Shown piece by piece: positions 6,223-42,000 of a stretch of 64,000 bases of DNA. The translations under genes were made by a program, and so were the position numbers. Under the pieces are notes generated by a model. The model was given only the letters and a program-made list of their open reading frames with translations, made no database searches and was not told where the DNA came from. Origin of the DNA: Patellaria atrata CBS 101060 (taxonomy: Eukaryota); assembly GCA_010093705.1 (NCBI GenBank), contig MU006110.1:265680-329679 (forward strand). Reading direction: 5' to 3'. Numbering within the stretch: the stretch's first letter is position 1; each line of letters starts with the position of its first letter.

Positions 6223-6272
6223 TGCGGTTATATCTGTTGACGGAGAATGGAGCACGGGCAATCAAGCGATAA

Positions 6273-6535: not shown

Positions 6536-6670
6536 GATAAGAGATGGCGATCGTAACAGCGGCTCGGGCTACCTACGGATTAGCACTTGTCGGAGGATCC
6601 CGGCGGATTCGAGCTATACTCTTGGCCAACGTGCTACTCGCAGAAGTCACGTGATGCGGTCAGAGGATGT

Positions 6671-7140: not shown

Positions 7141-7207
7141 GCCATTCCCATCGTTCTGCGCATCCACGGTATATTAGCGCGTGGTAAACATCCTTAAAAT
7201 TGCCACT

Positions 7208-10160: not shown

Positions 10161-10591
10161 GGTAGTGTACATACGATTGAGAAACTGCTCGAGAATGTTA
10201 GCACAGAGAATTAAGTTTTGTGCGGAGGTGACTTCTCAATCGTCCTGAAGGCCAGAGAGTTCATACGAAGAGTACATGCTCCTACTAGCGCGAAGATGGC
10301 GTTTAGCGGTAAATTGTCGAATCGACGCATGCGGCTCAAGATCAATACAGCACCCATTACTATCGATCTTGCCAACGCCAATATGCCTATGTTAAGATTC
10401 AATGAGAATCAAGGAACTCATTGGAGATTTCCCAGTGTTCCGCCCTGTGAATCACCCAAACGAAGGTATTTACCCTTGCTTTCCTGTCCCCTCTATGGAA
10501 TAGAGATTGACTAAAATCATATAATCATGAGTTAGTTACTTCTTATTTAGGGCGCTTCTAAGGGGGCTTGAGGATTTGTCAAGCTTGAAAG

Positions 10592-11644
10592 TTACATATC
10601 TCTTCTTTCCTCTACATACGGTGGTGGATATATATTATATTTACCACTCAGTGCTTGGCGTAAAATAGCTGAAACTGGCTCAAATCCGGGTGATAGTACA
10701 GTATACCGTCTCAGAGCCGACCACACCCTGATTACTGATTTAACATACCCTTCCAGCTTTTGAGTTTCACTCAACAAGCTGAATACTCAAGATTCTCGCT
10801 CAAGTTCAGTGTTCACCCTTACCACCTTTAATATTCACCTTTACCATCTATACCGAAGATACATGAATATCCATGTATCAAAAAGGCACCAACATTCCTT
10901 CCAGCCCATATCTTCAAACTCTTACCTCTAGCTAGAAATCCTACTCTAACTCTGGGCCAGATTTAGTACTCTTCCGGTACTGTTGTGCGTTAGGGCAGTT
11001 CCATGGGCTCGTAGCTCTCTGGCTCTTGTTGTTTGGACTCTTCGAGGTTCAATTCGTGACTGGCAATGGTGTTGGCAGTGGTGCTAGCCGTGGTGCTGGC
11101 CGTGATACTGGCGAGACGAAACAAGGGTTGTGCTGTACGGAGGCTCTGACTGAAGTCGTGGCTGATGCTGTAGCCGTACGTACGCAAGGAAAGAACTGGG
11201 GGCCGTAGTGGTGGCCAGTCGTTGACAGAGGTGGTACATGGTCCATCTTGAGATGCCGTGCTGAAGGCATCAAAGCTGAGGACCATCGTAAAGGCCGGCC
11301 GCTGACTGAGAAATACTGTTGACCGTATTAGGCCTTATTTAACGTCGCTCCTGTACGACGGAAGCACTCATCATAGACGGAGGTGCGTGGCGGGAAAACA
11401 GTACGTAAATAAACAAAGGAGTACTATAGAGACATGAGTATCGAGCCCCTTTGATGTGAGATGATAATTGATCGCTTGATTCCTCTACATACGGCAGTGG
11501 ATAGGTGTTTATATAGACCACTCGATGCTTGGCTAAAACAGTTGAAACTGGTAAAAATTCAGGTGATACAGTATATCGTTTCATGGCCAACAACACCCTG
11601 ATTGCTGATTTTACAAATTCGTACCTTTTTATCTTTAATACCAA
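10592..11644 (-). repeat. Two diverged copies of a short coding-like module (10592-10777 and ~11470-11644)
   Basis: VKSVIRVWSALRRYTVLSPGFEPVSAIL...YPPPYVEE aligns with VKSAIRVLLAMKRYTVSPEFLPVSTVL...YPLPYVEE. Confidence 0.55.
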
Positions 11645-12287
11645 TACCGATCGGTAATGTCGCTGCTAGGGAGCAGGTGTTTGGGAGCCGGTGCTAGAGA
11701 GATAACCGTGCATGCGTCAAGCGAATTTCGATCGCACGGTACCGTGGTTATGGGTTGCAAGGGATGTGCTAGACTGGAAGTTCTGGAACTAATGATCGGT
11801 GGGCCGGGACGACCCACATTTCATACTATATTTTCGCCTACAAACAACCACAGGACAAGTAGTAGCGCTGTTGTTCCAAAACGCCTGCATCTGCAGTTCA
11901 CACAACGTTATGCTTTGTCAAATTCATAGCCTCGCAGTCTATTCTTTGACTCTTGTTGGAGCTGGCTGGGACGCGGAAAAATCAAACATCGTCAATCGTC
12001 ATGGTGCGTCGACAACATTACACACCCTAACTTCACAAAATGAGAAAATATCAGAAGTGTTCCTGCTGCTAATCTTGATGCCAAATTCCGCCGCACTTTT
12101 CGTCCGGACATGTTATTTCTTGCGTTTTTGTCTCCGCTCACTGCCTTCTGGCAAAGGCTTTTAACATCTGCGCAGGACACGCTAGGCTTAGTCCCGAATC
12201 CTCTACCCCAATGTCGATGATCGTCTGGCCCTTCATCCGGACGACAAGCCTTGGAACCAGGTAGGAACGGGAAATTTTCGCGTTATC

Positions 12288-12368
12288 GCTTACGGCTTAT
12301 GGCCTACGGCTTATGGCCTACGGCTTATGGCCTACGGCTTATGGCTTACTGCTTACCGTTTACTGCTT
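12288..12368 (+). repeat. Intronic minisatellite with a 7/14-bp unit (GGCTTATGGCCTAC)n
   Basis: Directly visible tandem copies inside the GT...AG intron 12261-12370. Confidence 0.85.
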
Positions 12369-12393
12369 AGATCGAACCATCGCAGACGATAGT

Positions 12394-12656
12394 TGTCAGA
12401 TTGCTGCAGTGGCTGAAAAGGTGCATGGCTTGATTCTCAAATGAGTGGTTCTATCTATGTGTTATATACCGCAGGTGTGTACCAAAACGGACGGAACAGT
12501 ATGAAATCTATGTCTTAGAAAATAACGAAAATAGTACCAACAGTAAGAACTAAAAGATAGTGCTGTATTAGATTAGTAACCCTGGTTACTCTGATACCGT
12601 AGTCCGTGGCGAAATAAGCGAACGGGATGATTATCCTGGTTACCAATATTCCGACA
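12394..12656. mobile_element. Solo LTR (family A, inverted relative to 6273-6535)
   Basis: TGTCAGA...CCGACA ends; TSD ATAGT on both sides. Confidence 0.9.
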
Positions 12657-13038
12657 ATAGTATACCACAACTGTTTTGATGGCCTTAAATGTGCACGTTT
12701 GCTCTTGCCATTGGACTGGAGTCATGGCGAGTCGAATGGTCCAGAAATCGCCGTCGCAGTGATAAGGCAACCCGCAAAGGTGAATGTCACCGATCCAAGG
12801 TACGGCGGTGCAGTCATTGTAAATCCTGGTGAGTGGGATATCCTCCAGATACAAACATGATCTAAACTATGCAGGTAGACCTGCTGCATCTGGCGTCCGA
12901 ACCCTTCTTCAAAGCGGTGAGCGCTTTCAAAATATTGTTGACGCTGATTCCGACCCGAAATCTGACCTGCGCGAGACGGCATCTGGTATCTAATACTTCG
13001 ATATCATCAGCTTCGATCCGGGCGGAGTAAACCATACT

Positions 13039-13348: not shown

Positions 13349-14154
13349 ATACCCAAATCTAATGTCCAGAGAAAGATCCAAGCAGCCTATTTTCAACTCA
13401 AGACCGGTATTGGATTCTTCAAGTCTTATTCTAAGGTGCTTGGGAAAGATGAAGAAGGGAAGTGCTTCAAAGACTGTGTTAAGAAACGAGCATAGAGCTG
13501 TGGTAAAAGTGAGTTGAATTGCCCTAGTTCTAGCTACGAGTAGACGAGAAGACATGCGTGAGCCAAGCCTTTCGGGCCGACCAATCTCCCTTACCGTGAG
13601 GCCAGCGGTGCCTAGTCACTGACCGGTTAGTATACCGTTCCGTAACAGACTGTCAATCACTTCAAACACCAACACACCTTATCTTACATTGTGCAAACTA
13701 CTCAAAAGAGCGTAAGGAAATGAGGAAACAACTGAGATCAAAGCTAACAATGGCAAAGCTATTTTGCACAAAGTTAGGCAAACAAGTGTTATTTAAATAT
13801 ATAGCAAGAACTCAAATCTCTACTGCTAAATGGCTGATGCACGCAGGAGATGTAGATAGAGTGGAAGTATAGAGTCTACAGAAGATAACACGATGTATGG
13901 CATAAAACTGGGAATAAAAAACAGATGGTAAAGAAGAAGAAGGGATGGTTTTTCAACAATTTCCTTTGTATAGAGTTTAAACGTCCGGACTTTCCTTTAT
14001 AAATAAAATATCAGTAGGTTAAGCCACTAAACACTTTACTAAGCATATGAGGGCCCTGAAAAGGGATTTATGTATATAGGGAGTTGCGCCATAGCTTGAA
14101 GGCTGCATGCGCAGTATTGTAGGTAATATAATACAATGGAATTAAAAAAAAAAA
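13349..14154 (+). mobile_element. LINE 3' fragment (diverged relative of 7208-8103) interrupted by a solo LTR
   Basis: QAAYFQLKTGIGFFKSYSK..GKCFKDC, then after the LTR QSLQTPTHLILHC; shared 3' end GGCTGCATGCGCAGTATTGTAG plus poly(A). Confidence 0.85.
13477..13647. mobile_element. Solo LTR (171 bp, family B)
   Basis: TGTTAAG...CGTAACA ends; TSD GACTG; relatives at 44590-44752 and 54880-54957. Confidence 0.88.
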
Positions 14155-14167
14155 CAACTAGATAGAA

Positions 14168-14365
14168 TGGTGAAATTGAGGGTCACGCAAGGTGGTTGGA
14201 TATCAGATGGCTGGATATCAGATGGTTGGGGACCAGGATAAGTGAGATGGTTAAGTAGGCAATACTATAAGATAGCACAGGCACCCACTCCAGATAGTAT
14301 ACAATCAATGAACACTCTTACCCTTCTATCTACTACCTTAGCTCATACCTGTGTGGATTTTATCA
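14168..14365. mobile_element. Solo LTR (198 bp, family C) nested in an older copia-LTR relic
   Basis: TGGTGAAA...TTTATCA ends; TSD TAGAA; near-identical inverted copy at 34463-34660. Confidence 0.9.
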
Positions 14366-16613: not shown

Positions 16614-18262
16614 TTAAGGTGTATAGATGTCCCGCCCAAGCACCCTCATTCTCTTCTCCATCACCTGCACCTCCAGCTCTTCGGCCTCCTTCCATCGCCC
16701 TTGAGTGCTGTACGTCAACGCCAGGTTGACCATGCTGATCAGCGTGTCTGGATGCTCCTCCCCAAGCACCCTCTTTCTCTTCTCCATCACCTGCACCTCC
16801 AGCTCTTCGGCCTCCTTCCATCGCCCTTGATTCCTATACGTCGACGCCAGGTTGGCCGTGCTGGACAGCGTGTCTGGATGCTCGTCTCCTAAGATAATCT
16901 TCCTAGACTCGAATGTTCGTCGGTGCAGTTTCTCTGCCTTAGTATAAAGCCCTTGAGCTTCTAAAACCAGTCCAAGAAGCTCTATAGCAGCAAGCGTATC
17001 AATGTCGTCGTTGCCGCCTATAGTTCGGCGATCTTCTACTAATCTGCGAATTACTTCTTCTGCGGACTTATATCTTCCTTGGCTTATAAACACTTCGCCT
17101 AATATGGATAATATTCCTAAGTGCTTAGAGTGGCTGGTCCCGAACCAATTCTCCGCCCTGGACAATTCTTCTCGTAGACGCTCTTCTTCCCTTTGTTTAT
17201 ACCGCTGCGGTAGAAGAGCCGCTGCACTATCTATCTGGCCCTGGAAAGCGTTTGGGGTGGAGATAGGGTATGGGAGGGAGCTTGGAAGAGACAGATAGGT
17301 GGAAGCGGAACTTTGCCCTGTAAAAGTGCTGCTTTGAGGTTGAATTATGCTTGTAATTGAAGGAGCGGGAGAGAACATTTGCGGGCTCCCGGCGATAGAA
17401 ATAATGTCTTGCGTTGAAAGGATTGGAGTTGCTACTGAAGATACGGGACTATGGGCTAGGGAATCACACTCAGAAATGGTTCGACAATACACATCAGACG
17501 GGGTGGCTTCGGCATGTTAGTATCGTATGTAGCTATGTTTTTTACACTTCAACTTACATGCCGCGGGACTAGGGCTATATAAGAGACTCTTGGAAACCCC
17601 TTTCCTTTTCATCCATCGGTCGATTTTTCGTTGTTCTACTTTATTACCCCTAACTTCAGTTATAAGCTCGCCCTTAGTGACTTCAACAAGCTTTCTTCGC
17701 TGTTGTTTTCTCACGATTGTTTTCATCTCTGTCGGCTTGATATTCTTGTCCTTGCCCCATTGACTAACGCGCGTTCGGTACTGTCGTAGCCTGTCTAAAG
17801 TAAGTATATGAGCGTGTTAGGGGGTCTACCTTACTCTATTTAGACATACTCAGCAATAAAGCCAAACTCATTCTCAATCTTCTTCTTAACTTCCTTTAGA
17901 GATAGTCTTTGCTCAATATAGAGTTCGACGATTCGATCTTTATACGGCTCCCAAGCATTGGCGTGTAGGGTCGGAGCCTTCCTCTTCCGTGGCCGGGTTG
18001 GCGGACCCATAGGAATTACGGGCCCAGTTTGGGAATCACCAAAAGACCCTCCATTTTGGAGTGGATAGTCATGGAATGAATATGGTATATGACTTTGGCC
18101 AGTCATAAACTGTCCACCTTGGCCTTGCGTCTGTAAAGTAGAGTCAAATGCTAAGGGGACGTCATGGGGCCTATGAGCTTGCTGTGCGACGTAAGGGCTC
18201 GACATAGGATGTGGAAGATTGAGCTCCCCGAAAACGGGGAAATTGGAGATCCAGGGATTCAT
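16614..18262 (-). pseudogene. Clr5-domain plus kinesin-light-chain-type TPR protein, multi-exon, 3' end degraded
   Basis: Clr5-like WEPYKDRIVELYIEQRLSLKEV...QYRTRVSQWGKDKNIK; 42-aa TPRs (HPDTL.S..NLA.TY..QGRWKEAEELE); frameshift and AT-rich decay near 16630. Confidence 0.8.
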
Positions 18263-19178
18263 GTCAAGGCTTCTTCGTGCCGAAGCCGTATCAATCAACA
18301 AGACTGCCTTGTGGGTTCAGATCAAGAGTAATAGACCGGCTTGGGAGGAAAAGGAAGAGAAAGGAACGAAGCGATACTGCGTACTTAAGTAGACTGGTAA
18401 AGATATAATATATAGTAGAATAGTTAAGAAGCAGAGTTAATCGGTGGGGACTGACCAGCTAAATGACAAAACTCCTATTGTCGCTGAGTTATGGCTGAGC
18501 GTCAATTATGGAGGGGAGTAGATGACGCAGTATCCGTGCGCAAGCCTTAACTACCCAACTAGAATATGGCCGGCCCTAGTTAGCAAAAGTACTATCTCGC
18601 TAGTAACCAATCGCCTTCGGTCAGGGCGCTTGAAAAACTACAATCATGTTAAGCTTCCATCTCTCCCGCATGGCAATCCAGAAACCTCTCTTCACTAAGC
18701 CGAATATAGAGCTGAAACAGGGCGTCTGTGCATTTTATCCCACTACCTAACGGGCTCCTAGCAGCGGAAGCTTCACGCAAAAGTACTATTTTTCGTTTAA
18801 TGCTCACGCCCGCTAATTATAAAGCCTACTTAAAAGTCTTGGCGTATTACGACCACCATTAATGATACATATAATGGTGCACTGGGTGGCTATGAACCTT
18901 TTCATTCAGCGGTTCACCGCACTTCCTAAAGAGACTTGCTGTTCAGTTTTAATATCATCTGCAAAACTACTGAATATCTTTATATTAAGAGGGCTGTTGT
19001 CCTGACTCTTACACGTAGTTCTCTACCTAATGTCGATTTCAGACTGTCTAAACAGTACGATTCGTCACCTCACTGCCTGGAACATTACCAGTTCAACTAT
19101 CTCATCGCACTGAAGCATTATCAATTCAAATACCTCACGACATAGAGCACATCTATTCCCATTTCTAGACATTACGAT

Positions 19179-19469: not shown

Positions 19470-19806
19470 TGTGAGATTGTGGGTAACTGAATGTAGTCGC
19501 TTGATTCTCCGTACAACTACGGATTCTATCTAGTGTTTATATAATGACAGACCACCTTATTGATTAACCCTTTGACGTCACGAAGCCTAGCTACGTAATC
19601 TCCAAATCAAGGCGAACATAACGATACTACCTACGTCAGATATAAAATAAGAGATGACATCAAAAGAGTGAGCTAATGTTATAGTTTTGGTGATACTTAA
19701 CCGATAAGTCGGAGCCGAGCATTTAGCTCTGAAGATCTCCAACACGAACTCCTGGAGATCCTGACGATCTTCCAACATAAGGCTATCGGGGATCAGCTAT
19801 CTGACA
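19470..19806 (-). repeat. 3' LTR of the copia element
   Basis: TGTGAG...CTGACA, adjacent to the PPT (CACCCTTCC on the + strand). Confidence 0.85.
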
Positions 19807-22800
19807 CACCCTTCCAGCTCGAGGAGCTTGGGGACAGCTACTCGGGCTGAACCGTAGTCCTGATGGTGTTTTTGATGGAGATGGAGAAATTTCGAGAGGT
19901 GTTCTTATGCTTTCTCCTCTGTTCGTGTTCATGGATATGATGCTCGATATCAGCCATTCCAAGCTGTTTGAGAAAGGATTCGTGGTTCTGACGACCAAGA
20001 AGCTTTGTGAAGCCGTCAGCTGGCATTTCAGTCGTAGATCTCCACTCCAATCTGATACGTCCGGACTGAACTTCCTGTCGTAGCCAGTGCTGGTGGATAT
20101 CCACGTGTTTGAGCTTTGTTGTCAGCTGAGGCGTGTCAGCCTTAAGGAGACGTAAAGTCTGTTGGTTATCGCATAAAATCGAGATTTGATGCTCTGGATC
20201 AAAAGAGATTCCATTGAAAAGGCGTTGCTAAGCGATGAGCTCTCTGGCAGTCAGAAATAGAGCTAGAAGCTCAGCTTCAGTGCTTGACGTAGTGACTGTA
20301 TCTTGTTTTGTAGCTTTGATATGCTTGTCTGACGGATTAGTCAGATATTTGGACAGCTCAGAAGCCGCCCTAGCAACGTCTGGTCTCGTGGACGTGGATG
20401 GCCAGTTGATGGATCCAACTAGTTGTTGATAGTGGTGAATCTGAGATTGAGATGCTTGAGTCGTAGAGCGTCTCAAAGGCTCAATAGGTAGAGGTGTTGA
20501 GGGAAACTTTTGATAGTGAAGGTTGAATTTTGAGTAGATGCTCTCAATATAAGCATCTTGACAGAGCCATAACTTCCTAGCGTCAAGATCTCGGACTACA
20601 CGCATGCCGAGGAAATTCTGAAGATCTCCGAGCTCCTTCATGGGGTAGACAGCCATCAGTTGTGCTTTGAATTCGTGGAGTTCTTCGCTATACTGTTTTG
20701 AGCACAGCAAAACGATGTCGTCGACGTAGAAGAAGACGGTTAGCCACTCGTTTTGAAAGAGACAGTTAACTCCAATCACCTGAGAGAGGCCTAGAGCTTC
20801 AAGAGTAGTTGATAACGTGCGCCACCACAGTAAGGGGGACCTTTTGAGTCCGTATAAAGCTCGTTTGAGACGAAGCGCAGTCCCGGGCGAAGAGAATCCT
20901 TCCGGTGGGAGGCAAAACACTTCTTCGTCAACAGGACTATTTACAAAAGCGTTAACAGCATCTAAATGCAGAGCTATCAAGTCGAAAGCGGCTGCGATGG
21001 ATAGCATAGCTCTCATAGTACGCATGGCTAGAGTAGCGGCGAACGTGTCCAGTTCTGTATGGTGGAGATCACCTCTAACACAAAGTCGTGCTTTGTATTT
21101 GGTCAAAAATCCCTCCTCGTCGAATTTGTACGTAAAGACCCACATTAGGGGCAACAGTTGTGCTCCGTCTGGAAGCTCAGATCTCCTTTCAATAGTAAAC
21201 GTGCCACGATTTTGAAGCTCGTTATACTCACGAGTAGCTGCAGATAGCCAGTCGTCACGATACTGGTGGCTCAATACACCCTTCCAGCGAGACGGTACGG
21301 GGGGGAGCTGACTTCGGTGAATCCGGTTGGTTGGCTGAATCTCCTTTTTAAGGGAGGTGAGGAAAGAGGTGAACAATGCATGGTGGGTGGTACGACCTCT
21401 ACGGCGCTTACCAGTCAATATATTTGACTCATCAAATTCAGACGATATCTGATTGGCTCGAGGGGCTTTGTTGTGAGTACGACGAGTGCTTATTGTTATA
21501 TTTTCACCTATGGAGGAGCTTGGTGACTGATCCCGAGCTTTTTCGGTATCCCTAGCCAGCCCCTGAGCAGTGTCCTGGACAAGCTGGTTTGACGGATCAT
21601 ATGATGGATCCTCAGAGTCCGAAACAGCATCTGGTGTCGGTTGTGGCGAAGGTAGGTATGCTCTGGACTACTTTTCAGTGTCTTGAAGGGGAGTAGTGCT
21701 CAACGGTAGAGTAGCTGTAGATAGTGTGGGATCTGTGGTTCCTATCGGATTATCATTGTCCAAGATCACCGGATATTCCGCCTGCATCGCTTTTGCTCGG
21801 AGACTTGGTGGTATCTCGAGTATATCGATTACTTCTGTCGTGGATTCCTTGAGCAGGTGACCGATATCAATATCTCGAGGATTGTAAAGTGAATTTTCGT
21901 CAAAACGGACGTCTCTGGAGGAGAACACACGCCTCAAGCTGGGTACCCAAATACGGAAGATATTTGATGAGTCATAGCCAACCAAATATCCGATGTGAGC
22001 ACGTGGATCAAGTTTTTGAAGCCTAGGGATGTTTTTATTCAAAACGTAAGCTTTACAGCCATATACCCGTAGGTGGCTAAGATCGGGCTTCCTACCAGTG
22101 ACGAGCTCAAAAGGGATCTTCCAATTGAGCCTTTTTGTCGGTGTTCTGTTCAGCAGATACACGGCTGTGTGTATCGGCTCAGGCCAGATATCGTGTGGAA
22201 GTTGAGCACCAACACGTAAGCCTCTGCTTCTCAAAATAATCACCCTTCCAGAGGACTCAGCTCCTGCATTCTGAGCAGGAGTATAGGGAGCTGAGGCTCT
22301 GAAATTCCTCCTATGGCAGCAAGTTCGTCATAGAACTCGTTAGTAAGTGCGGACTCACCGTCTCGTTCAAAATAGACAACGGTATATCCGAATTGAGCCA
22401 AAATCCGGGCGACATAGTTCTTGCAAATTTGAACAATATCGCTTTTTCTTACGTGGGTGACAGCTTCGTGCCATCCAGTGAAGCGATCATAAAAGTGGGT
22501 AAGGTATTTACACCCATTGTAAGCTTCTTTCAAGTAAATCATATCAACGGCCACTCTCTCGAATGGTCTCGTCGGGGGCAACGTGGCCCGTGGTCTTCGT
22601 GAGACAATCTCTGTTGCTTTAGTCAGAGCGCATGTCTCGCACTCTGTTGTTGAGGGTCCCCTCCCATATAGTTCGGCACCCGTTACGTTGTCCTGGAGAT
22701 GTTCAAGTATCTCCGGGCTAGGGTGTGCCATGATTTTGTGCCATTTGTCAGCGGTAGCTGATACTGGCGGCCTAGGTTGGCTGGAGCGGGTTACCATGGC

Positions 22801-24476
22801 CACGGCCTTCTCATTGATGTCTAATTCGACGTAGTGGAGTAAGTAATGGCCGTCCATCTTGTGGACTTTGCAAATTTGCTTGCCTTTGGCATCCTCAAAG
22901 ATACCTCTCCGAGCGTTGTGAAAAACACCCTTTGCCTCAGCTTTTGACTGAGAGATTAGTGAAGTTCGGAACTGAGGGCACAAATAAGCACCACTCAGGG
23001 TGATGAAGCTCCGTCCATAAGGTGTATCCACGGGGACGTTTAAAGCTTCCAACAGCATCAACTGGGACGGATCTGTATCCCATACCTAGAGTCAGTCCAG
23101 GGTGTACTGTTTCAATGTTAAAAATAGCTGGGTTATTGCAGACGTGGACATCAGATCCACCGTCTAGAACGTAAGAGGCCGAGAATTTGAATGGCACATC
23201 TTCGTGAAAGGTCGTTGCCCTGAGGGTCGCTCCAGGGCTTACGGGTTTGTTTGATTTTGAAGGTTTAGAGTCTTGCCCTTGAGAGGATTCTTGGGAATTT
23301 TTGAATTCTGCTCTGATTTTGTCAATGGCAGATCTTATTCGCTCGCTGGAGGATTTATATCGTTCGTTGACCTCACGCTGTACCTTCTCTGAATAGTTCG
23401 CTGGCTTCGTTGCAGCCGGATTGATATAACAACACGATCTGAAGAAGTGATTTTGTCCACAAAGGCAAAGAGGTTTCTTCCCATGCTGTTGAGTGGATTT
23501 GTCGTTCTTGGTTGTATTTGATTCTCCTTGAAACGTGGCAAGGGCTGTGCCTTTGGATGTAGACACCGCCCCAGTGGCGCGCTTGTAGGCCGCATACTGT
23601 TTGACGATCTTGTGGACGTCGTCGACATGATTATGGACACTGACTGTGGCTGCGTTATCAGAAACAGGCACAAGAGGGGGTCTATTGTCAAGCTGATCCA
23701 TCAGTTTCACCTGATTTGCCACTGCCCAGTGCTCGTCCACTTGCTTGATAGCTTCTAAAAGCTCCACCTCAAACATAAAGATGCCGATAAAGGTATGCTG
23801 GATTTGTTTACTCTCTGAGTAGATGGTCTCGTAATCATTGAGCCAATCGTAAATATTCCTCTTCTTGATAGAGGCTCTGAGAGCGTTTAGGCGTCCGGAT
23901 ATCTCGAAGATAGACGAGTGATTAGCTGGACGGAATCTAGATCTAAGTTCAACGAGTTTTTCGTGGACCGATTTGAGGTTTATGATATGCTGAAGCGTTG
24001 ATGACGATATAGAGTCGTATATAGCGTTCTGTAAATCAACGATAGCTTCTTCAGCCTTATCATAGATCTTACACTGTCGTCTATACTTTTCAAGCTGAGC
24101 ATTAGTTGCATTATCAGCAAGCTCGCCTGGCTGGTCGATCTCAGGGGGTTCCGCTATATCAGGATTTACGTATTTCCATACTTTGCTAGCTTCAGCTTTT
24201 CCTTTGATCAGACCAATCCACGTGTTCCAATCGGAAGACGAGTTCAGTATAATGGAAGACTTCGAGGTAAGGGTTGAAGACGACATATTGGCAAGCAGAC
24301 AGCTTAAAACCAGAAGAGATAGGAGTATATTTAAGCAAAGATGTCCAAAAGTAGATGGAGCAGTAAAAGCACCACCACAACGGTAAAAGGAGTCAAGAGA
24401 CTGATAAAGATAATGCTTAAAATATCTGAAAATCTCAGCTGATCTCTCAAAGCTACGTGCAAGCCGGGCTCATAAC

Positions 24477-24810
24477 TGTGAGATTATGGATAACTGAATG
24501 TAGTCGCTTGATTTTTTTTATCTATCCACTAAAGGAATTTCTATATATACTGAAGAGCTACTAAGAGTCGTTGAGATAATTGTTGAAATAGAGGAGTCTG
24601 TTGAGGACGAAATAAATAATTGTTGAAGAGAGACTTTTTCGTGCTCCATGCTACTCCGTGGCTGACATCTGACAGATAGTTGATAGATCCACCAAAGCAC
24701 CGATACTCCAACAGCGCCACCATCTAACAATACTTAACTTATAAGTCGGAGCCGAGCACTTAGCTCTGAAAATTTCCAACATAAGGCTATCGGAGATTAG
24801 CCGTCTGACA
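24477..24810 (-). repeat. 5' LTR of the copia element
   Basis: TGTGAG...CTGACA, adjacent to the PBS; shares only its ends with 19470-19806. Confidence 0.85.
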
Positions 24811-25070
24811 GTTCTATATATAGATTCTAGGCGCTATTGGAAGAAAATTAAGGCATTAGTGGTCTTACGCGGTTATTCTATAATTAATGTAAGAATGAAG
24901 TTTGAAGAATCTTGTAAAAAACTTATGAAATATAGGAAACTGAAAACTAAAAGGGGAGGAGGTTAGCGAAGAGTGAAGACCGGAGAATATGCGGTGTATG
25001 ATTTGTGGCATATAAGCTACATAAAACGTGGAAAGAGACATGTCATCTCCGTTGTGGTCTAGTGGTTAGG
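24811..25070 (+). repeat. ~260-bp direct repeat of 37226-37489 (captain-proximal segment ending in a tRNA 5' half)
   Basis: Collinear high-identity match from GTTC(T/C)ATATATAGATTCTAGGCGCT to TCCGTTGTGGTCTAGTGGTTAGG. Confidence 0.92.
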
Positions 25071-25140
25071 ATTTGTCGCTCCCATTCGCACTGAAGCGAT
25101 TGGGCTCCGACAAGGCCGGAGTTGTTTTCCCGCAACGAAA
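25048..25140 (+). tRNA. Intron-containing tRNA-Glu-like pseudogene
   Basis: Acceptor TCCGTTG/CAACGAA, A-box TGGTCTAGTGG, anticodon stem TGTCG/CGACA around a ~22-nt intron. The loop reads CCC (CTC in the 37467 copy) and the T-loop is degenerate (GTTGTTTTC instead of GTTCGATTC). Confidence 0.7.
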
Positions 25141-25558
25141 AATTTATTTACACAGGTTTACTCCCTCAATTTTTACTTGGCTATCTCTCTTTTACTCCCG
25201 GGATGGAGTAAGTGTAGGCGGTCGGTGTTTTAATACTGTTGCTGTGTTTATTTTATGAGTTTTTATCCATGTATGAAGTAATCCGCAAGATTAGCCATCA
25301 TGGCCCGCTTCTTCCAAGGGGGAAAAGTAGTGGAATTTAATGTGACTGCTTATATTCTGTAGTCGGTTGGCGCGGAGTACTGATGTGTACGAGTTAGGAT
25401 TGTGTTTATGGTCCGTGCATGCACAGGCGAGGCAACCTAGGCAATAAACACAACTACGCCAGCGACAAGAAAGTTCAAGTCATCTACAATGAACCTCTTT
25501 ATTATTGCTTGCTCTCTGTTTTGTCGCCGTTACCCTTAACCTCTTCACCATCTCAGTC

Positions 25559-27154
25559 ATGGAGCGTGCAGACGCATGGTTGACAGTGACGTTCGCTGCA
25601 GGCAGCGATATCGAGCCACCGCCTTTGCCTAACATACCCGCAGACTACCTGGCGAAGCCTCGCAGGAAGCGCCCAACCTCTGCTCTTCTTCCCTCGTCCC
25701 ATCCTCGCATCATTTCTCTTCCTAAACGCAAACACACGACGCTCGCCGAGATTGACCTGCCCAACGAACCGCTCCCATCGCCGACCGAAGAGCCGTCTCC
25801 TTCCCGCTCCAAGCGTCAACGAGTAGTACGAATACCCAATATGAGGCATCAGTCTCAGTCACCGTCAAAACAGAAATACCCGGCAAGGAACAAAGCACAG
25901 GCTGGTGAAAATGCCTTCGATCTTGACGCCGCACCAAGACGACCTCGTCGTACCAACCCTAGACCTGCCAAAGTCTTGAGCGAGACAGTTATGCCAAGAC
26001 TGACGCCAGGCGTATCTGAAGGTGAAAATGAAGACTGGAACCAGCCAGATTCGTCCGTCACTGAATCAGCCGACTCGAGAACTTCAAAGCGATCCGTTAG
26101 CCCCACTAAGAGAATGGTTGACCTCCGGGTTGCAGACAAGAGGGTTTTACAAAAAAGCGTCCGTTCGCAATCGGATGTGCCGAGAGATGTGCAAGAACTC
26201 TATAGAAAGGTCCTAAGTTTAACCACATTTGCACGTAGCATTATTCCTAAGGGAATTGAGGTACGAGTTCTCTTCAACTTTGTCCACCCACTTACTCACA
26301 TTTAGTGATCAGGATGAAGTTGAAAATGCTTGCGGTGGTATTGAACCTTTTGATATTGTTTTGGTCTCGGAGCAAGAGGAAGATATTATAGACAAGGAAC
26401 GATTGCTGAATGAGCTCAAAGTTGTCAAGGACGTTCGGGATGCGACTTCATTCTGCAAAGCTAAGCACGTCCATGAGCCCACATGGAATGAGCGCGTTCA
26501 CAGTCGAATTCTGCAGCAAGCTGTGAAGCACCTCCCGGGCCTTGAATACCACAATATTACCACCGCACGGGTGATCAAGGGACTTGTGCCTGCCAACAAA
26601 TACGGTGAGGAGTTGAAGAAGAAGATAGTTGATTATGCCATCACGCTTCAAGATCCTCTTATCGCTGAAGAGCATATCACCCGCCGATTGGCCTCTTCAA
26701 CTGGAAGACTCTATAGAACGATCAACCCTTCAGATTACTCTCCGCTCTGTCACGAGCCTATTGCTGTTAGCATCGAGACCAAAACACCAGATGGCTCCAG
26801 AGAGAAAGCTTTAGTACAGCTTTCTATCTGGGTAACTGCTCACTTTAATCGCTTGCGTGCTCTTGCACCTGATCCCATCACCGTTACTCTTCCCCTAATC
26901 TTTGTTTCTGGCGAGCATTGGGAGCTGATGTTTGCACGGGACCTGGATGACTGTATTGTATGTGGGCCAATCGTTGTCTGCTTTGTCACCAACTAACACA
27001 GCTATTGCAGGAGATTATTGATGGTATGATTATCGGAAGTACGGGGACCATCCTTGGTTGCTACAAGATTCTTACTGCTTTACGTCACCTTTGCGGTTGG
27101 GCTTTATCAACATTTCAGCGTTGGTTCGTCGACAACGTTCTCACGCCGGAATGA
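25559..27154 (+). CDS. Fungal PD-(D/E)XK nuclease-like protein (PDDEXK_12-like), apparently intact; exons 25559-26260, 26313-26957, 27011-27154 (496 aa)
   Basis: In-frame GT-AG splicing; HEPTWNERVH, KIVDYAI, PIAVSIETK, QLSIW, LPLIFVSGEHW, IGSTGTILGCY. Confidence 0.85.
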
Positions 27155-28964: not shown

Positions 28965-29951
28965 TCACTCTTCAGCTCTTGCAGCTAATCCGAGCTGAGA
29001 AAGCATTATACTTGGTCCCAGCTCCTTCAGATGATCCAGTTGAGTTTCTTTCATCAGCCATACAGAACCCATCATACCGGCAGTATTTGCTGTTGCACCA
29101 TGGTATTGAATGTTCCTGCGGGGGATTGAAATGATCCACTCTTTTGTTAACATAACGTTGTGAGAGCAGATCGGGTTCTCGTCCAATAACCCTAAGAGCT
29201 CTCTGGTTTGCTTAAGTAATCCTTCATAGACTTCAAACAGGTCGCTAGCGGTGATCGTTTTCTCTGAGTGTTGCTCCGAAAAGTATTTCAAAGAGTATCG
29301 GAATGGCACATTTTCCGGCTTCACTTGGTCCGTGTCGGGAAAGAAGCAAAAACCGCTCTTAGGATCAGGCATAGGGATGATATGCAGGTGTTTATGATCC
29401 CTGCTTGCCCCAGCTACTACAGTGCAGTTAAACATAGCATAATGAGGTGACTTCAAGCTATTCAGAACAGTCCATGCGGCATCGATGTCCTGGAGGGATA
29501 GCGGCTCATGTTGACGACGGTAAGAATCCGCCGTGAGGAGCAACAGATGCGGTCGGAAGAGAGGAAACTTGTTGATTACGAGTAAATGAGTATCTCTCAC
29601 AGTAGTGATAAGCAGGTCCGGGTGTGAATTAGCAATATCACTTCCCGGTCCGAAGCAAACCGGCCTGGAATCAACAGCATCCGGCAGTGTCTTCTCGGGA
29701 GATTTGAGCTCCTCTTCTGCCTGTGGCTTTCCGAGCAAAGAATGACTTATTCGGAACTCGAACTAGACATGCAGTTAGGCTCTGATCCTATTATTGTTTC
29801 TCGCTACCAGTATGTAAGCATGGGGGAAACACACAGGATATCCCCCGTCAACCAAATGTAATATGTTTGGAGGGCTGTAATTGATCACGCCCTGTGCGGC
29901 TAATGAATCGAATTTCAAGAGAATGCTGTCGTAGTCAACAGTCAACACCAT
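28965..29951 (-). CDS. Ap4A phosphorylase / ATP adenylyltransferase-like protein (Apa1/Apa2 family, HIT superfamily); exons 29951-29835 and 29762-28965
   Basis: FEFRISHSLLGKP, LLVINKFPLFRPHLLLLT, QHEPL, MFNCTVVAGASRDHKHLH, HNVMLTKEWIISIPRR, NTAGMMG. Confidence 0.85.
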
Positions 29952-31062
29952 ACTTGACAGAGAACGTGATGTTCGAGAATTTTAGAGAATCAAGATGGGA
30001 AGATGGGGGTTGTTGTTGTCGGACGAGGCTGCGAGACTGTTGGATGAGAGCAGCTTAGGCTCGCTTACGGATAAGTGTTTACTGACCGAGCTGAACGATG
30101 GGACGGAACTCTAGATTGGAACACTTCTCAGACCTTACGAGACCTATCTCCGACAGTACGGAAGGTACTACCGTTTCGGTATTGCTTATTGTATATAATG
30201 TAGTGATCTCTCAGTGTTTTGCCAATCAAGCGACATACTCCGTGTACCTGCAGATCAATTATTCTCCCAGAGTCCCGATAGAGGGGTTAGGTCCACCTCC
30301 CCCAACAACGGTTGGTTTACAGTATCGAGTCCAAGACATCCATTCTGCACAGAGTCTTTTTCCCAACTTTATCTTTTCATTTCAATCGTTGCGGTGTTTA
30401 TCTACGACACTGCGTATGCAGCCTACACATGTAGGGTTATGGCGCTACTCTTTTATCTACATAATCCTTTTCGTAGGGCAGTAATATGTCTACTGGGAGC
30501 TATCTTTGACTTGTGGTCAAACATTTGTGAACCCGAATGCAGCTGGATCACGGGCAGAGTTCCCCTATTCCCTCACAACCCCCAATTTCATGCGAGCTGA
30601 GACCAGAAAGGTGTACTTCGTCCCTTACTGGTTGATGACCGTCAGTATTACCCCTTGTTGTAACTTTGCGAGCATAACAACCGGGTCTAGGTTCTTTTTG
30701 GGGGGAAGACCAGTGACGAGGCTTCTATTGACACACATGTTTTCGCTTATCCTCTACTCTCTTTCTGCAACCCTCCTCTCTCACAACACCTTGGCAATTG
30801 AGCATTGGGGGCTAAAACTCTCCATCCGGTAATACACCCCCTGCGATACGCCTCCCGCGATACGCCTCTGCGATATCTTACGCGACTTTCCAGCAAGGAG
30901 AGATGAGGCTCAAGCGCGCGCAAAAATACATAAAGAGATGGGACGCGGGTAATCCTTCTCCATTATTAATTATCCTTGAATGTTCTATTTCTACTAACCA
31001 TTATCTGTTACCTTACTTTTCGATCTTTATCTCTCCATCTTTACTTTATCTAAAAGTTCATC

Positions 31063-34462: not shown

Positions 34463-34660
34463 TGATAAAATCCACACAGGTATGAGCTAAGGTAGTAGAT
34501 AGAAGGGTAAGAGTGTTCATTGATTGTCTACTATCTGGAGTGGGTGCCTGTGCTATCTTATAGTATTGCCTGCTTAACCATCTCACTTATCCTGGTCCCC
34601 AACCATCTGATATCCAGCCATCTGATATCCAGCCACCTTGCGTGACCCTCAATTTCACCA
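34463..34660. mobile_element. Solo LTR (family C)
   Basis: Reverse complement of 14168-14365; TSD AGTTG. Confidence 0.9.
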
Positions 34661-34999
34661 AGTTGTGATGGCTGAAATCCGTACTAAGAAAGAAGTCAAA
34701 CGTTCCGCCGTTATAGTTGCACGTCTCAGGACTAATTTTAGGCTTAATTGCTGAGGATCTGTAGGTGCGTTTATTGTGCTTTTCTGCTCTTGTTCTCCCG
34801 TGGATTTATCTTATCGGGTTCTCAGCGCATCCGTCGGTCGTGATGTGCACACGGCTCCCTTTGGTGAATACGCTTCCACGCCAAACTTCTCCCTCGTCCC
34901 TGCCCATGGAAACTGACGATATCGCTTCGCAGCTGCTCCAGGTGCCGGCCTGAATAACTATACTATAAATTGTTATTACTCCATAGAATAGTCTAAGGT

Positions 35000-37044
35000 T
35001 TTCTAGGTGTGAGTAAGAGTGCGCCTCCCAGATTATTTTATTATCAATATATCCTGCGCAACTGTAGCAGAAGTACTGTCGATCCGGTATTGTTAAATCG
35101 TTCGGAATATAGTGCTCGGTTATTAAGTGGGCAATACGCTTTTGCCGAGCATATAAGAGTAAGTGCTTACTCTTTCGCGCTTTTCCGGCGCTATCATAGC
35201 TTGATTAGTTTTCACGTGCTATTGGCGTGTAGGAGAGAAATTTCACCTTGCCAAATCCGTATCGCAGTTGAAACAATTACCCTTATCATTAGGCTTCGCC
35301 TCAGGGTACCATACACCTCCGTTTAAGGGAGAAGACATCACTATCATCGGTTCGAGTATAGACCTCTCAGTAACAAGAGGAGCCCCTTTTAAGTTATATA
35401 AGGCATCGATGAGCTTAGCCCGTTAAGGCTCGTATCTCAAAACTGTCTGCATAAGTATATGTTCCGTTCGTGAAGGGAGAAGTATATCCGAAGCTTCGAT
35501 ATCCCCATCAAACTGGTGGTCATCTTGAACCATATCCGACTGAGGGATGCGATTGAAATGGGCTGAACGAGCTTCACGGAACTGGTCTCGGCGCATGCGA
35601 CTAATATCTGCACGCCTCCTTTCGGCGGTGGTCACGGTAGGTATCGCGATAGGCCTACGTCTCGGGGCCGTTAGGTCGGCGCCGTGGGGTGGCGGTGCGT
35701 TAATATCCCTCTCCAGAAGCATTGTTCTTGAGAAATCGAAAAGTTTTGCGCGCTGAGGCAAACCACGCATGATCGATTGGCCATCCACTACCGACTTTCG
35801 GGAAATATAGGCCTGAAAAGTGTCATCATTTATATGTCCCATGCGTTATCTCCTTTGGGCTGTAGTTGCGGCTTAATCAAGCTTATTTGCGAAACCACGT
35901 CTAAAGTAGTATGCGGATATAGGGTCTTTATATCCTGCTCTCTACCCAAGGGCTCGGAGTTGCCCTCCACAGCTTTTATGCTTCAAAATCTGCGTCTCTG
36001 ATATAAGGCCGGACGGTGTGATAGCTCGTATAATAGGAATATCCCTCATTCAGGTTTAGCTTCTAAGGTAATTGCGGCTCGGGAGGCCGGAACCTAGATC
36101 GTATTAAAGGCCGCTAGATTCGGAAGCGCAGTATAAGCTTAATCCGCAATCGCTAGAGCTAAGAAATGTGTGAAGACGCAAGTCGCTTTATCGGCTATTA
36201 GAGTTAGAGTAATCTCTAGGCTACTTAAGTTATTAGCTTATAGGCATTTACGAACTATGTTTAGGATCTAGCAAGATTACCTATCTAGTTTGAACCTACG
36301 ACCCTTCTAATTGCGAACTACTACACTTATAGTCCAAATTGCTCCTTTGGACGTAGTTATAGACTTAGTGAGAGTGATATCTTTATAATATAAACCCTCA
36401 TTACTCTCTAGCCAGCATCTCGACTCGATTAGTTCGCCAGGGCGGAGGCCTAAATCACTAAGTAGAAGAATTATAAAGTGAAGCTGGATCCGACAGCGAG
36501 GGTGTACGTACTCGAAGGTATCGAATATCCATAAATACTTGAGTAGATCCTTCGTGACGGGATACGATGCCATAGGTTTCGGTTAACATTTACTTAATAC
36601 CCCTAATCTTTCTCGAATATCTATGTGAATATAGTCGGTGATTAAGTCGATTTCTTTCCGTCCAAATTTATAGTTATGCTCAAGGAAAAGGAGTAGTTAT
36701 ATCTCTCTCCATACCCTTTCCAAAGTACGGATGGTGACTTTCTATTCGATTTGCCCCGGGTATTTCGAACCTAGAAATGGAGAAAAGCCTTTATTTATGA
36801 AAGTGCAGGAACTTCCGAGAGAGGTACATCTATATAGCGCGTGTTCGGTAGATATTAAATAGCATATCTATTCTATATATTAGCTATAGAAACTATAACT
36901 TAGAACAAGAATATACTATTGAAATCGACGGCGAAGAAGGTCGAACTTCTCCTTTAAGTAAGGACGAATAACGGGCTATACATTATCGTCGTTCGTAGCT
37001 TCCGTCCTGAGGATCTCGTTGATAAAATTATCCTCGTCGTCCAT
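35000..37044 (-). pseudogene. DUF3435-type tyrosine recombinase (Starship captain-like), inactivated by RIP-like stops
   Basis: Ordered catalytic signature GLRPGE (R), RN*KGRR (K), YYFRRGFAN (R), RMGH (H), FQAYIS (Y), then VDGQS..GLPQR and WYPEAKP..GNCFNC; FEYVHPRCRIQL upstream; ATG at 37044; many TAA/TAG stops; 3' end approximate. Confidence 0.85.
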
Positions 37045-37225
37045 GTTAGGTAACACACTTGAGCAGATGAATAGAGAAAGAAACGATAGAAAGGAGTAAA
37101 ATAAAGAGAACTTCAACGAAATTTATCAGAATATAAGGTAAGAAAGTTAAGGAGACGAGGAAACGCGATAGAGAGATATAGCGAGGGCGAAGTAGGCACC
37201 CCTATCCTTCCTGAGAATTGCTCTA

Positions 37226-37504
37226 GTTCCATATATAGATTCTAGGCGCTGTTTCAAGAAAATTAAGGCATTAGTGGTCTTACGCGGTTATTCTATAATT
37301 AATGTAAGAATGAAGTTTAAAGAATCGTATAAAAAACTTATGAAATACGAGAAACTGAAAACTAAAAGGGGAGGAGGTTGGTGAAGAGCGAAGACCGGAG
37401 AATATGCGGCGTATGATTTGTTAGTGGGATATAAGCTACATAAAACTTGGAAAGAAGCATGTTATATCCGTTGTGGTCTAGTGGTTAGGTCTTTTCACTC
37501 TCAC
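37226..37504 (+). repeat. Captain-upstream segment (repeat of 24811-25070) ending in a tRNA-Glu(CTC)-like 5' half at 37467-37504
   Basis: 23 nt identical to 25048-25070, then TCTTTTCA-CTCTCAC; no 3' half of a tRNA follows. Confidence 0.85.
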
Positions 37505-37940
37505 CTCCTATGCCGGGATCGGTGTTCTAAACTTTTAAAAACCAAAACCAGGAATTTCAAACGATAAAACATGAATCTAAGAGTATCGAAATAAATCAAC
37601 CAGAATATTGGTAAAAGTGCCACTAACACCTATAGAGTCTGTTCTTATGGGCGAATCAACCCAATCCTCCTAAGGCATTCATGGCATCATGCATTGCCAC
37701 AACTTCGTAAAGGGGCGAACCAGAATAACTCATTCCCTGGCATATATTGTAACAGGCTAGAGCCTAGTGGTATGAGCGCGCCCTGCATCCGAAGATCAGC
37801 CAGTAATATTTTCCTCAAACCTGCCTTCAGACTCTTCTCTTCTTCTTTATCTTGATTGTAGATAGCATCTGGACTAGATAGTTGGAACACAATTACTAGA
37901 GGCCGCTCACATACAATCAAGATCATTCAAGTTACTAAGG

Positions 37941-39095
37941 ATGGAACAGAATAACGAGCCTAATACTTTAAGCATCCTACTCGCAGAGATACAAAACCTT
38001 AGGAGCGAGTGTACTGAGCTACGTCGTCAATTTAACGAACGACTCCCTTCCCTAGAGCATCAGCAAACGACTTCCCAATTAGATCCCACAACAACCCCTG
38101 AATCTGATACCCCTCCCCCCTTCGCCGCGATCACACCTGTCGTCACGAAGCCGCGCTATAGCCTCCCCCATCCTCCGAAGTTTAGCGGTGACAAGTCACA
38201 ATGGAGGGGCTGGAAGTTAGAGATGGAAGGCAAGATAGAAGAAGACGCTATAGCCATTGGGTCCCTCCAAGCCCAATTGCGTTATATCTATATGCACCTT
38301 GAGAAAACCGCTAAGACAAACACGACAACATTTTATGAGTTGGAAGTTAAAAAGGATTTACCGAACCCTTATCGGTTACTTGAACGACTTGAAATCCTCT
38401 ATGGAGAGCGGAACCGTAAACAAAAAGCCATCCAAAACCTTCATTCTATTCGCCAACGGGATAACGAGACATTTATGGCTTTCTATCCCCGCTTCGAGAA
38501 AGAGATAGCTAATGCCGATGCTGAAGATTGGGATGATGACTCAAAGATATCCTATTTGCGTAATGCGCTGAGTGAGAGGATGAAGGATAAGCTTGTGGGT
38601 ATTTTAGGAAAGAAAAAGGATACCTATATGGAATTTGCTCAGAGATGTGAAGAAATCAGCAATGATATGGAACTATTTGGGCAGTGGACCAAGGTTAGGA
38701 GTAGTAAAAGTGCGCAGACCATAGATACTGAGACACCACATCGAGACATGATGGAATGGGAACCCACCCCATCAGTATCTACTTTAACCCAAGTCAATAG
38801 CACACGCACCCGTAATAACAAGGATGGATACCCATCTAAAAGACCTGAAGACCAAGCGCTTATAGGAAAACGGGCAAAGTGGGTTGATCAGAGAGAGATA
38901 AATGCTCGTATCCGGGAAAACCGTTGCTTCCGTTGTGGTAGAGATGATTGCAGGGTTAGCACCTACCCACTAGCAGCACCAATTCGACCAAAACAATCTA
39001 CTCATGTTAGCACAGCGGTATCTCCTCGGCCCACTATCACCCAAGCCATGGTGGAGGAAGATGATGATAACACTAAGGAAGACGCAAGCCAATAG
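37941..39095 (+). CDS. Gypsy gag
   Basis: LPHPPKFSGD, retrotransposon gag core, MEWEPT and a CFRCG knuckle remnant. Confidence 0.9.
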   Translation: MEQNNEPNTLSILLAEIQNLRSECTELRRQFNERLPSLEHQQTTSQLDPTTTPESDTPPPFAAITPVVTKPRYSLPHPPKFSGDKSQWRGWKLEMEGKIEEDAIAIGSLQAQLRYIYMHLEKTAKTNTTTFYELEVKKDLPNPYRLLERLEILYGERNRKQKAIQNLHSIRQRDNETFMAFYPRFEKEIANADAEDWDDDSKISYLRNALSERMKDKLVGILGKKKDTYMEFAQRCEEISNDMELFGQWTKVRSSKSAQTIDTETPHRDMMEWEPTPSVSTLTQVNSTRTRNNKDGYPSKRPEDQALIGKRAKWVDQREINARIRENRCFRCGRDDCRVSTYPLAAPIRPKQSTHVSTAVSPRPTITQAMVEEDDDNTKEDASQ

Positions 39096-42000
39096 GGACG
39101 CGCGGCAGCTCGAAGAGAATGGAAAGAAGTTGGAGAAGCAAAGATGGATGGAGACCCCTTTTTAGTGGATATTAGACTCAATGGAACCAAGTTTGTTACA
39201 GGACTCATTAACTCTGGCTGTCTTTGCTACGCTGCAATTAGTGAACAACTTTTCAAATCTTTAAAGCTGCCTCATCTCCGGATTGCACCAAGAAAGCTAG
39301 AAGAAGCTGCTGGAAAGAACGCAAGGCCCTCTACAGTCTTAGATACTGTGACCTATGCTTCAATCGATATAGATGGCCACCAGCAAAAACGTATCTTTTT
39401 CTATGTTATACCAGGCCTTAATCACGAAGTGATCCTTGGAAATCCTTGGTTAGAAGATACCAATTCAATCATATCCGCAAGGAAAGGGTGCTTAGACATT
39501 GGAATATCTAATACCCGTGTCTGGAACCGCGCTAAGAAGTCATACCAGCCACCCCAACTCAAAGCAAAACAAGTCATGGCCACAGTATTTATGGCAGACG
39601 TAAGAAGGAATAGAAGAGAAGCTAAGCAAAGGGGAATTAATATCTATACTAAAGTGCATGCTATCTCTATAGCAGATATTGATAAAGCCTTAAAACCACG
39701 TCAGAGGTTAGACCCTAAGACAAAATTACCACCTCAATATTTTCCTTGGCTGAAGGTATTCGACCATTTCCTAGCAGAGAAGCTACCTCCTTGTCGGAAA
39801 GGTGTTGATTTGCATATTGAGATTGAAAAGGATCAGGATAGTAATGAGAAGGCGGTCCCGTGGGGCCCACTTTATGGTATGGGTCGAGAAGAATTACTTG
39901 TTTTAAGGAAGACTCTTACTGAATTATTAGGGAAGGACTTTATTAGAGCTAGCAACTCACCCGCTGCGGCACCAGTGCTAATGGTAAAGAAGCCTAATGG
40001 AGGTATCCGATTCTATGTTGATTATCGTGGACTGAATAACATTATAAAGAAAGATCGCTATCCCTTACCATTATTCAGCGAAACCCTAAGGAACGTTGCA
40101 AAGGCTCGATGGTTTACTAAACTCGACGTTATTGCCGCTTTTCATAAGATACGAATAGCCGAAGGGGAAGAATGGAAAACCGCTTTCCGGACAAGATATG
40201 GACTTTTCGAGTGGAAAGTTGTTCCCTTTGGATTAACTGGAGCACCTGCGGCATTTCAAAGATACCTGAATAGCATTCTTCAAGATTATCTAGACGATTT
40301 TGTCTCAGCATATATAGATAATATTCTTATCTACTCATCAGGAACCCTTAAAGACCACCGAAATAAAGTTGGAAAGATTCTTCAACGGCTAATGGACGCC
40401 GGACTACAGATCGATATTGAAAAGTGCGAATTTGAGACTAAAAGGGTCAAATATCTTGGGTTTATTATTGAAGCTGAAACTGGGATCCGCGTTGACCCTG
40501 AAAAGATTGTTGCAATACGGGAGTGGGCCACACCGTCATCCGTCAAGACAGTTCGAGGGTTTATAGGGTTTGCAAACTTCTATCGGACTTTTATACCTGA
40601 GTTCTCGGATATTGCAAGGCCTCTTACAGATCTTACAAAGAGGGACGTCCCCTTTCGATGGGATAAGCCTTGTGATGAAGCATTTAAAAAGATAAAGGAG
40701 TTACTTATCACCGCACCTATCTTAGCTCACTTTGACCCAGATATGGAGACACTAATAGAAGCCGACTCGTCTAGTTATGCTACTAGTGGTTTACTTTTGC
40801 AGAAAGATAAGGCAGGTATCTAGAAACCCGTTGCGTATCATTCAAAAAAGCATTCTTCTACTGAAGCCAATTACCCAATTCATGATAAGGAATTACTTGC
40901 TATTATAAGGTGCTTAGAAGCCTGGGAACCGGAGCTACATATGGTTAAGCACTTCACCATTTTGACTGATCATAAGAATTTAAGGTACTTCTACACAGAG
41001 AAGCAGCTATCCGAGAGACAAGTACGATGGTCAGAGTTTCTTGCAAGATTTAATTTCACTCTGGAATGGAAACCAGGAACAAGTATGGGTAAACCTGATG
41101 CGCTATCACGTCGTGAATAGGACCTTCCAAATAACTATAACGACGAAAGGCTACGATCACGTTTTATACAACTCTTCCAGAACAAACATCTTAAGAGCAC
41201 TAGAGTCCTAAATATAAATGCTCTATCAGCTAAAGTTGACTTCTCTAAAGAAGTACCACTCTTTGAGAACGAAGAGATGCAACAGCTCTGGCACCAAAGC
41301 CGATAGGAAGACCAGCTCTACTAGGAGTTGACAGTTCTAGTGGCAAATAAAGGACGAGACCTACCAACAACGCTTCAAAAGGAGAAGTCTGTAAGTATTA
41401 CCGAGTGTACTTTAGAGGATAGAGGCTTGCTACAATTTCGTGGAAGAATCTGGATTCCTGGTAGTGAACCATTGCGTACTCGTATAATCCAAAACATTCA
41501 CGACTCTCACATTACTGGACACCCTAGAAGAGACCTTACTTATACCATTCTATCAAGGCAATTCTTCTGGCCAGGTGCTGCAAGCAATGTTCGACAGTTC
41601 GTCCGGAATTGTGAAGTATGTGGAAGAAACACCATTTGGAGAGAGTCGAAGAAAGGGCTCCTCAAGCCACTACCGATACCAGAACGCATTTGGGGAGAGA
41701 TCTCAATTGATTTTATCACCGACTTACCACCGTCTGGACGGGACAATGCTACAAACTGCATGGTAGTCACTGATCGACTAACGAAAGGAGTTGAGTTAGA
41801 AAGTATGCACGATATCTCCTCTGAAAAGGTTGCACAAAGACTCTTTGAACGCCACTACCCTGTTCATGGTATCCCCAACGCAATCACAAGCGATAGAGGC
41901 CCACAGTTCGTTAGTGACCTATGGAGACATTTCTGCACGCTTTTGAAGATTAAGCAGCGCTTATCAACTGCATATCATCCTCAGACGGATGGCGCAACAG

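Follow-up and report, generated by a model that had tools for sequence, protein, structure and literature searches.

Why does one and the same stretch of DNA stand in front of two different tRNA-Glu-like sequences, with the remains of a captain-type recombinase gene beside just one of them? We addressed this question in a window of 64 kb, by which we mean the whole stretch of DNA that was analysed (64,000 nucleotides; all positions are counted from its first base). The repeat that had been described between 24811-25070 and 37226-37489, in the same orientation, is real: blastn of the window against itself recovers a direct repeat of 24810-25084 with 37225-37503 (279 columns, 89.6% identity, E 5e-86), and MAFFT and a global alignment of the two copies are concordant with it. 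The global alignment contains 25 substitutions (17 transitions and 8 transversions) and one indel of 4 bases. The two copies, hereafter A and B, lie 12.4 kb apart, with a period of 12,415 bases, and in each of them an upstream block leads into a tRNA-Glu-like sequence (Table 1). The block occurs twice in the 64-kb window, and there is no third copy. A scan of metagenome contigs with a 27-base piece of the block gave 0 matches.

Table 1. Coordinates of the features discussed, given as positions in the window.
Feature	Position	Strand	Remarks
Copia-type retrotransposon (RVT_2)	19470-24810	-	LTRs 19470-19806 and ~24476-24810, unlike; truncates copy A on the left
Upstream block, copy A (237 bases)	24811-25047	+	Recent duplicate of 37226-37466
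Decayed tRNA-Glu-like gene A	25048-25140	+	Head 25048-25084, insert 25085-25106, 3' exon 25107-25140
PDDEXK_12 nuclease-family gene	25493-26996	+	Appears open; candidate 52-base intron 26261-26312
Ap4A phosphorylase-like ORF	28965-29762	-	Pfam domains Ap4A_phos_N and ATP_transf
Dead captain-type (DUF3435) recombinase gene	34806-37044	-	Many frame pieces; broken by a 198-base repeat at 34463-34660
Upstream block, copy B	37226-37466	+	Starts ~181 bases from the candidate captain ATG at 37044
tRNA-Glu-like relic B	37467-37545	+	Head 37467-37503, intronless, worn 3' part, TTTT run
Gypsy-type retrotransposon	37748-42982	+	LTRs differ at 1/169 bases; target-site duplication TATAT; long gag/pol ORFs

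Copy A ends in what, judged by its bases, is a dead, intron-bearing tRNA-Glu gene. As natural references we used two tRNA-Glu(CTC) genes from metagenome contigs, found by a scan with the 23-base head: L001, which is intronless, and L002, which has a 33-base intron at position 37/38. Copy A matches these genes at 34-35 of the 37 bases of the head and at 27-28 of the 34 bases of the tail, and its 22-base insert lies exactly at the canonical position 37/38, the same place as the L002 intron. These matches and the position of the insert mark it as a descendant of a tRNA-Glu gene, and all pairs of its anticodon stem (TGTCG/CGACA) are intact. It differs from the natural genes in the features that a functional tRNA-Glu should have: the anticodon loop is CTCCCA, giving the anticodon CCC and not a Glu anticodon (CTC or TTC), the T-loop is damaged (GTTGTTTTCCC, against GTTCGATTCCCC in L002), the T-stem carries a G-to-A change, the acceptor pair 2:71 is C-A, and there is no clear T-run terminator. 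The intron, the CCC anticodon and the broken T-loop reported in the initial annotation are thus all borne out by the comparison with L002.

The default detectors do not recognise this gene. ARAGORN at its default threshold, also with introns allowed, makes no tRNA call in the window; at -ps95 and at -ps90 copy A is the sole call in the whole 64 kb, labelled tRNA-Gly(ccc), and calls were obtained in 0 of 10 shuffled windows at -ps95 and in 2 of 10 at -ps90. Rfam gives no tRNA match, either in the window at the gathering score or in the two copies at E values up to 10. A 17-base motif of the tRNA head, allowing up to three mismatches, occurs within the window only at 25054 and 37473 (chance expectation 0.11), and the window contains no third tRNA-Glu head or 3' half. 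In the block of copy A, a TATA-like CATATAAGC lies about 38 bases 5' of the tRNA start. We also considered the tRNA head, taken in reverse complement, as a primer-binding site, and rejected this in view of the intron and the upstream TATA-like box of copy A. The intron has a match within the window at 19105-19116, exact over 12 bases and at chance level (E 0.26). Within the insert, TGGG can fold against the CCCA of the anticodon loop, a 4-base complement that is not significant in 22 bases; were the intron matched to the CCC anticodon, CCC would be old.

The tRNA-like sequence of copy B has a different body. Its anticodon loop, CTCTCAC, is the same as that of L001, and like L001 it aligns without an intron. 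Beyond the anticodon loop, 12 of 26 bases are in register with the 3' half of the natural tRNA-Glu in the MAFFT alignment, a level reached by 1391 of the 127,950 26-mers of the window. Copy B had been taken for a cleanly cut half tRNA. With a worn 3' part in register this is probably not the case: on modest evidence, a worn, partly deleted, intronless tRNA-Glu is more likely than a clean half. Body A, then, contains an intron and has preserved its 3' half fairly well, and body B is intronless with a worn 3' half. One upstream block, at least 237 bases long, is attached to two different tRNA-Glu bodies.

Where the recent homology of the two copies stops can be bracketed. The first 23 bases of the tRNA are identical among copy A, copy B, L001 and L002. 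Because unrelated natural tRNA-Glu genes carry the identical head, the agreement of A and B over these bases is uninformative as to recent ancestry, and the 23-base head does not by itself belong to the terminus of the initial annotation. Block and head together have 20 mismatches in 260 positions (~8%), as against 17 in 40 at tRNA positions 24-63 with the intron skipped (Fisher p 1.2e-7); positions 24-37 alone have 5 in 14 (p 0.003). Mismatches are also more frequent in the last 20 bases 5' of the tRNA, with 5 in 20 compared with 15 in 217 farther upstream (p 0.010). These jumps place the join somewhere between about -20 and the anticodon loop. The preservation of relic B (23 of 23 bases in the head, 12 of 26 in the tail) makes a join inside the gene more likely, at any rate for copy B. 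On the 3' side of the tRNAs the homology between the copies is not above that of shuffled sequences, of which 104 of 300 and 262 of 300 were as good under plain and transition-tolerant scoring. We also looked for an older tRNA head within the block and rejected it: the pattern GTGGTCT-N(1-8)-GGTTA occurs there four times against 0.07 expected, but it was picked post hoc, and local alignment of the block to a natural tRNA is not significant (212/1000 and 282/1000 shuffles).

On the left, copy A is cut off by a copia element. The homology begins, as had been claimed, exactly where the copia LTR stops: the LTR end TCTGACA lies at 24810, and the first homologous base of copy A is the one right after it. 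Both LTRs open with TGTGAGATT and close with TCTGACA (at 19806 and 24810), and their middle ~190 bases are not alignable. Outside the element, the adjoining five bases read AATAA on its left side and GTTCT on its right side, so there is no target-site duplication. Because the target-site duplication is missing and the LTRs are unlike, the element is not a simple insertion; its structure fits the signature that recombination or deletion between two copia elements would leave. The DNA to the left of the copia element does not resemble the DNA to the left of copy B above the level of shuffled sequences (77/300 and 231/300 as good), and this absence of likeness across the element indicates that it was not simply inserted into a longer duplicate. 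The left limit of the repeat is therefore imposed by the copia recombination, which removed the DNA to its left, and is not inherent to the repeat. Whatever its nature, the leftward continuation of copy A was plausibly lost in a copia-copia deletion. Of the earlier proposal that a copia-mediated deletion had removed a captain from this side, the deletion is supported by the missing target-site duplication and the unlike LTRs; a captain on this side, if one stood there, has left no relic in the window.

At copy B, in turn, the block is uninterrupted on the side of the captain up to the candidate ATG, 181 bases off, and the captain reads away from the block. The gene matches the DUF3435 profile in collinear pieces, with profile positions 7-56 at 36307-36582 (E 0.0053) and positions 223-314 at 35423-35845 (E 1.4e-6). 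A tblastn search of the window with 22 minus-strand ORF pieces of the captain region revealed no second captain relic: there were only 4 matches outside the region, from 3 pieces that overlap the inserted small repeat. The statement that no captain stands beside copy A thus holds for the whole window. A Starship captain has DUF3435 at the element's 5' end and reads inward; here copy A is without a captain, and that of copy B is broken. The small repeat of ~200 bases found in the dead captain (34463-34660) has an inverted copy at 14168-14365 that is 98.5% identical and a third copy at 54252-54490 with ~71% identity, and is probably a young MITE or solo LTR.

The 12.4-kb interval contains the PDDEXK_12 gene, the Ap4A phosphorylase-like ORF, unassigned ORFs and the dead captain. 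The label "CorA-like" that had been given to a gene of this interval is not retained, as the ORFs at 30-33 kb have no CorA match and no Pfam match above the curated cut-off. We found no terminal inverted repeats around the PDDEXK_12 gene at 25.5-27 kb, and our literature search on PDDEXK_12 returned no paper. Elsewhere in the window, at 6270-12659, inverted repeats of 266 bases (96% complementary) enclose 5.9 kb that include a second, broken PDDEXK_12 gene (ORF pieces at 8715-10126), with only about 28% identity to its counterpart at 25.5-27 kb. This segment may be an element bounded by terminal inverted repeats that carries the PDDEXK_12 nuclease family.

How did one block come to be attached to two tRNA-Glu bodies? 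Our preferred answer, a tentative one, is that a Starship-like element with a tyrosine recombinase, now dead, recombined at the conserved 5' part of tRNA-Glu genes and perhaps did so in tandem. The block would be the captain-proximal end of that element, and both copies would represent the same type of junction, composed of the element end and the tail of the target. Two direct junctions 12.4 kb apart would then correspond to a tandem pair or to two nearby insertions, the left element having lost its body, captain included, in the copia-copia deletion. A tandem pair with a lost left member was the first option offered by the initial annotation. We base this answer on the repeat itself and its jump in divergence within the tRNA, on the intron that copy A has and copy B lacks, on the want of homology 3' of the tRNAs, on the position of the captain at copy B and its inward orientation, on the shared core of only 23-37 bases, on the copia element at copy A with its unlike LTRs and no target-site duplication, and on the precedent of Starships in 5S rDNA. 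A shared core of 23-37 bases is short for homologous recombination and usual for site-specific recombination. Several observations weigh against a Starship-like origin. There are two copies only, with a captain at just one of them, and the window holds no third junction carrying the target's own 5' half. The 3' part of relic B is far more worn than the block, which would not be predicted for a target intact at integration. The head, being identical in natural tRNA-Glu genes, need not be element DNA, and the captain is dead, with no defined family or ends. The locus is now dead and shows no sign of present-day mobility.

PMC11162782 describes Starship families whose insertion target is 5S rDNA, likewise an RNA polymerase III gene, and a parallel between Starships and bacterial elements at tRNA genes is drawn in PMC9156397. 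The 5S rDNA Starships (Voyager, Enterprise and Arwing; PMC11162782, PMC9156397) share with our locus a DUF3435 captain at one end that reads inward, and an element end that abuts a small, dispersed, conserved RNA polymerase III gene damaged at the junction. They differ in that the target gene here is tRNA-Glu and not 5S rDNA, and in that the captain here is dead and copy A is without any captain. The direct repeats described for Starships measure 6-16 bases, whereas the stretch shared here is ~260 bases long, most of it upstream of the gene. Known Starship targets are 5S rDNA and AT-rich DNA; no report of a tRNA-targeting Starship was found in the article text searched.

The integrative elements that reside at tRNA genes in bacteria and archaea (attL/attR) likewise combine a tyrosine-recombinase gene beside the tRNA junction with direct repeats to which a portion of the tRNA belongs. 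They are known to form tandem arrays as well, and as a rule they bring the 3' part of the tRNA with them and leave the gene restored. In our locus, by contrast, the shared part is the 5' head with the region upstream of it, both tRNAs are dead, the host is a eukaryote, and the recombination is putative. Should the block prove to be such an element end, with tRNA-Glu genes as its sites of recombination, fungal captains would have the classic strategy of integrating at tRNA genes in common with bacterial islands, and the block with the tRNA head would provide a sequence handle for finding live relatives. A more specific version, which we consider doubtful, is that a captain-type family integrates with site specificity at the conserved 5' part of tRNA-Glu genes and carries its own upstream promoter block, perhaps with a complete tRNA-like attachment site; the locus would then have kept a tandem pair's right-hand junctions in two different tRNA-Glu bodies. 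Such a family would be the first eukaryotic counterpart of the bacterial tRNA-targeting integrative elements.

A close rival to a Starship-like end, and a possible explanation in its own right, is an ordinary rearrangement in which a segment ending at tRNA-Glu was duplicated, ectopic recombination or gene conversion among dispersed tRNA-Glu paralogues followed, and the captain is a mere neighbour. The window is a patchwork of transposons and repeats, the 23-base head common to all tRNA-Glu genes examined offers homology for recombination, and the copia recombination at the left edge means that such events have occurred at this locus; in yeasts, gene conversion among dispersed tRNA genes is known. 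The identical core is nevertheless short for homologous recombination, the repeat is not accompanied by a large duplication such as unequal crossing-over would yield, and it would have to be by coincidence that the captain at copy B has the position and orientation it has. If the locus records merely ectopic recombination of tRNA paralogues, it is an ordinary scar and an example of tRNA genes as breakpoints. We regard it as improbable that the block instead forms the end of another kind of repeat, such as a solo LTR that landed just upstream of tRNA genes in the manner of the Ty3 sigma element, or a dispersed SINE-like family, with the captain unrelated. In yeast, Ty3-type elements as a rule insert upstream of tRNA genes, and Ty3/sigma insertions resemble our case in placing the same repeat directly in front of different tRNA genes. 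The excess of mismatches in the last 20 bases before the tRNA would agree with a block that ends just upstream of the gene, and both copies have CA at -8/-7. For the block, however, we found neither LTR ends nor a target-site duplication nor a reverse-transcriptase partner: inspection by eye of copy B revealed no TG that would start an LTR and have a matching target-site duplication (in copy A, the left end has been lost to the copia element), and blastn detected no resemblance to the LTRs of the copia and gypsy elements of the window, which also lacks a third copy of the block. In a SINE the tRNA part should lead the repeat, whereas the homology seen here precedes the tRNA head and fades within the tRNA; moreover, the contrast between head and tail of relic B points to a join inside the gene.

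The second option of the initial annotation was that the two repeats bracket a unit of about 12.4 kb that could excise as a circle. In the form of a unit with the nuclease, the Ap4A phosphorylase-like gene, a membrane protein and the captain, which would integrate, and excise as a circle, by way of a tRNA-like site of its own, this option appears very improbable. The layout does equal that of a circle bearing block, head and intron-bearing tail which has recombined with a tRNA-Glu site, with the observed period, and the PDDEXK_12 gene appears open. But the target would need an upstream region that resembles the block, which only a tandem array provides, the captain is dead, and recombination is possible between any pair of direct repeats; 12.4 kb is also below the usual size of a Starship. 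The circle is in effect the model of a captain-bearing element seen from the other side, and works only in tandem. An assembly artefact is scarcely credible, because a collapsed or duplicated assembly would give near-identical copies, whereas the two copies differ at 25 positions and by an indel and have different flanks. The workable readings, including the Starship-like element that we prefer, all place the recombination site at a tRNA-Glu gene.

Several other repeats and genes were found in the window. The gypsy element, 241 bases to the right of copy B, has the structure of a young and simple later insertion. A piece resembling the 3' half of a tRNA, with the loop CTCATAA followed by GGTTCGACTCC and with no 5' half, lies at 46775-46825; after it, at 46892-47226, come two arrays of the 10-base unit GGTGAGATNG. 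A repeat of 629 bases is present at 7209-7837 and, inverted and 93% identical, at 43243-43869, with more diverged copies at 13663-14154 and 30374-30499; an ORF that overlaps one of its copies has a weak RNase H match. NLR-type genes are located at 55534-61718 (minus strand), 16617-17516 and 3-485. One of them combines patatin, NB-ARC and TPR parts with near-identical repeat units of 126 bases, and the set also includes a TPR piece and a WD40 piece with 126-base repeats.
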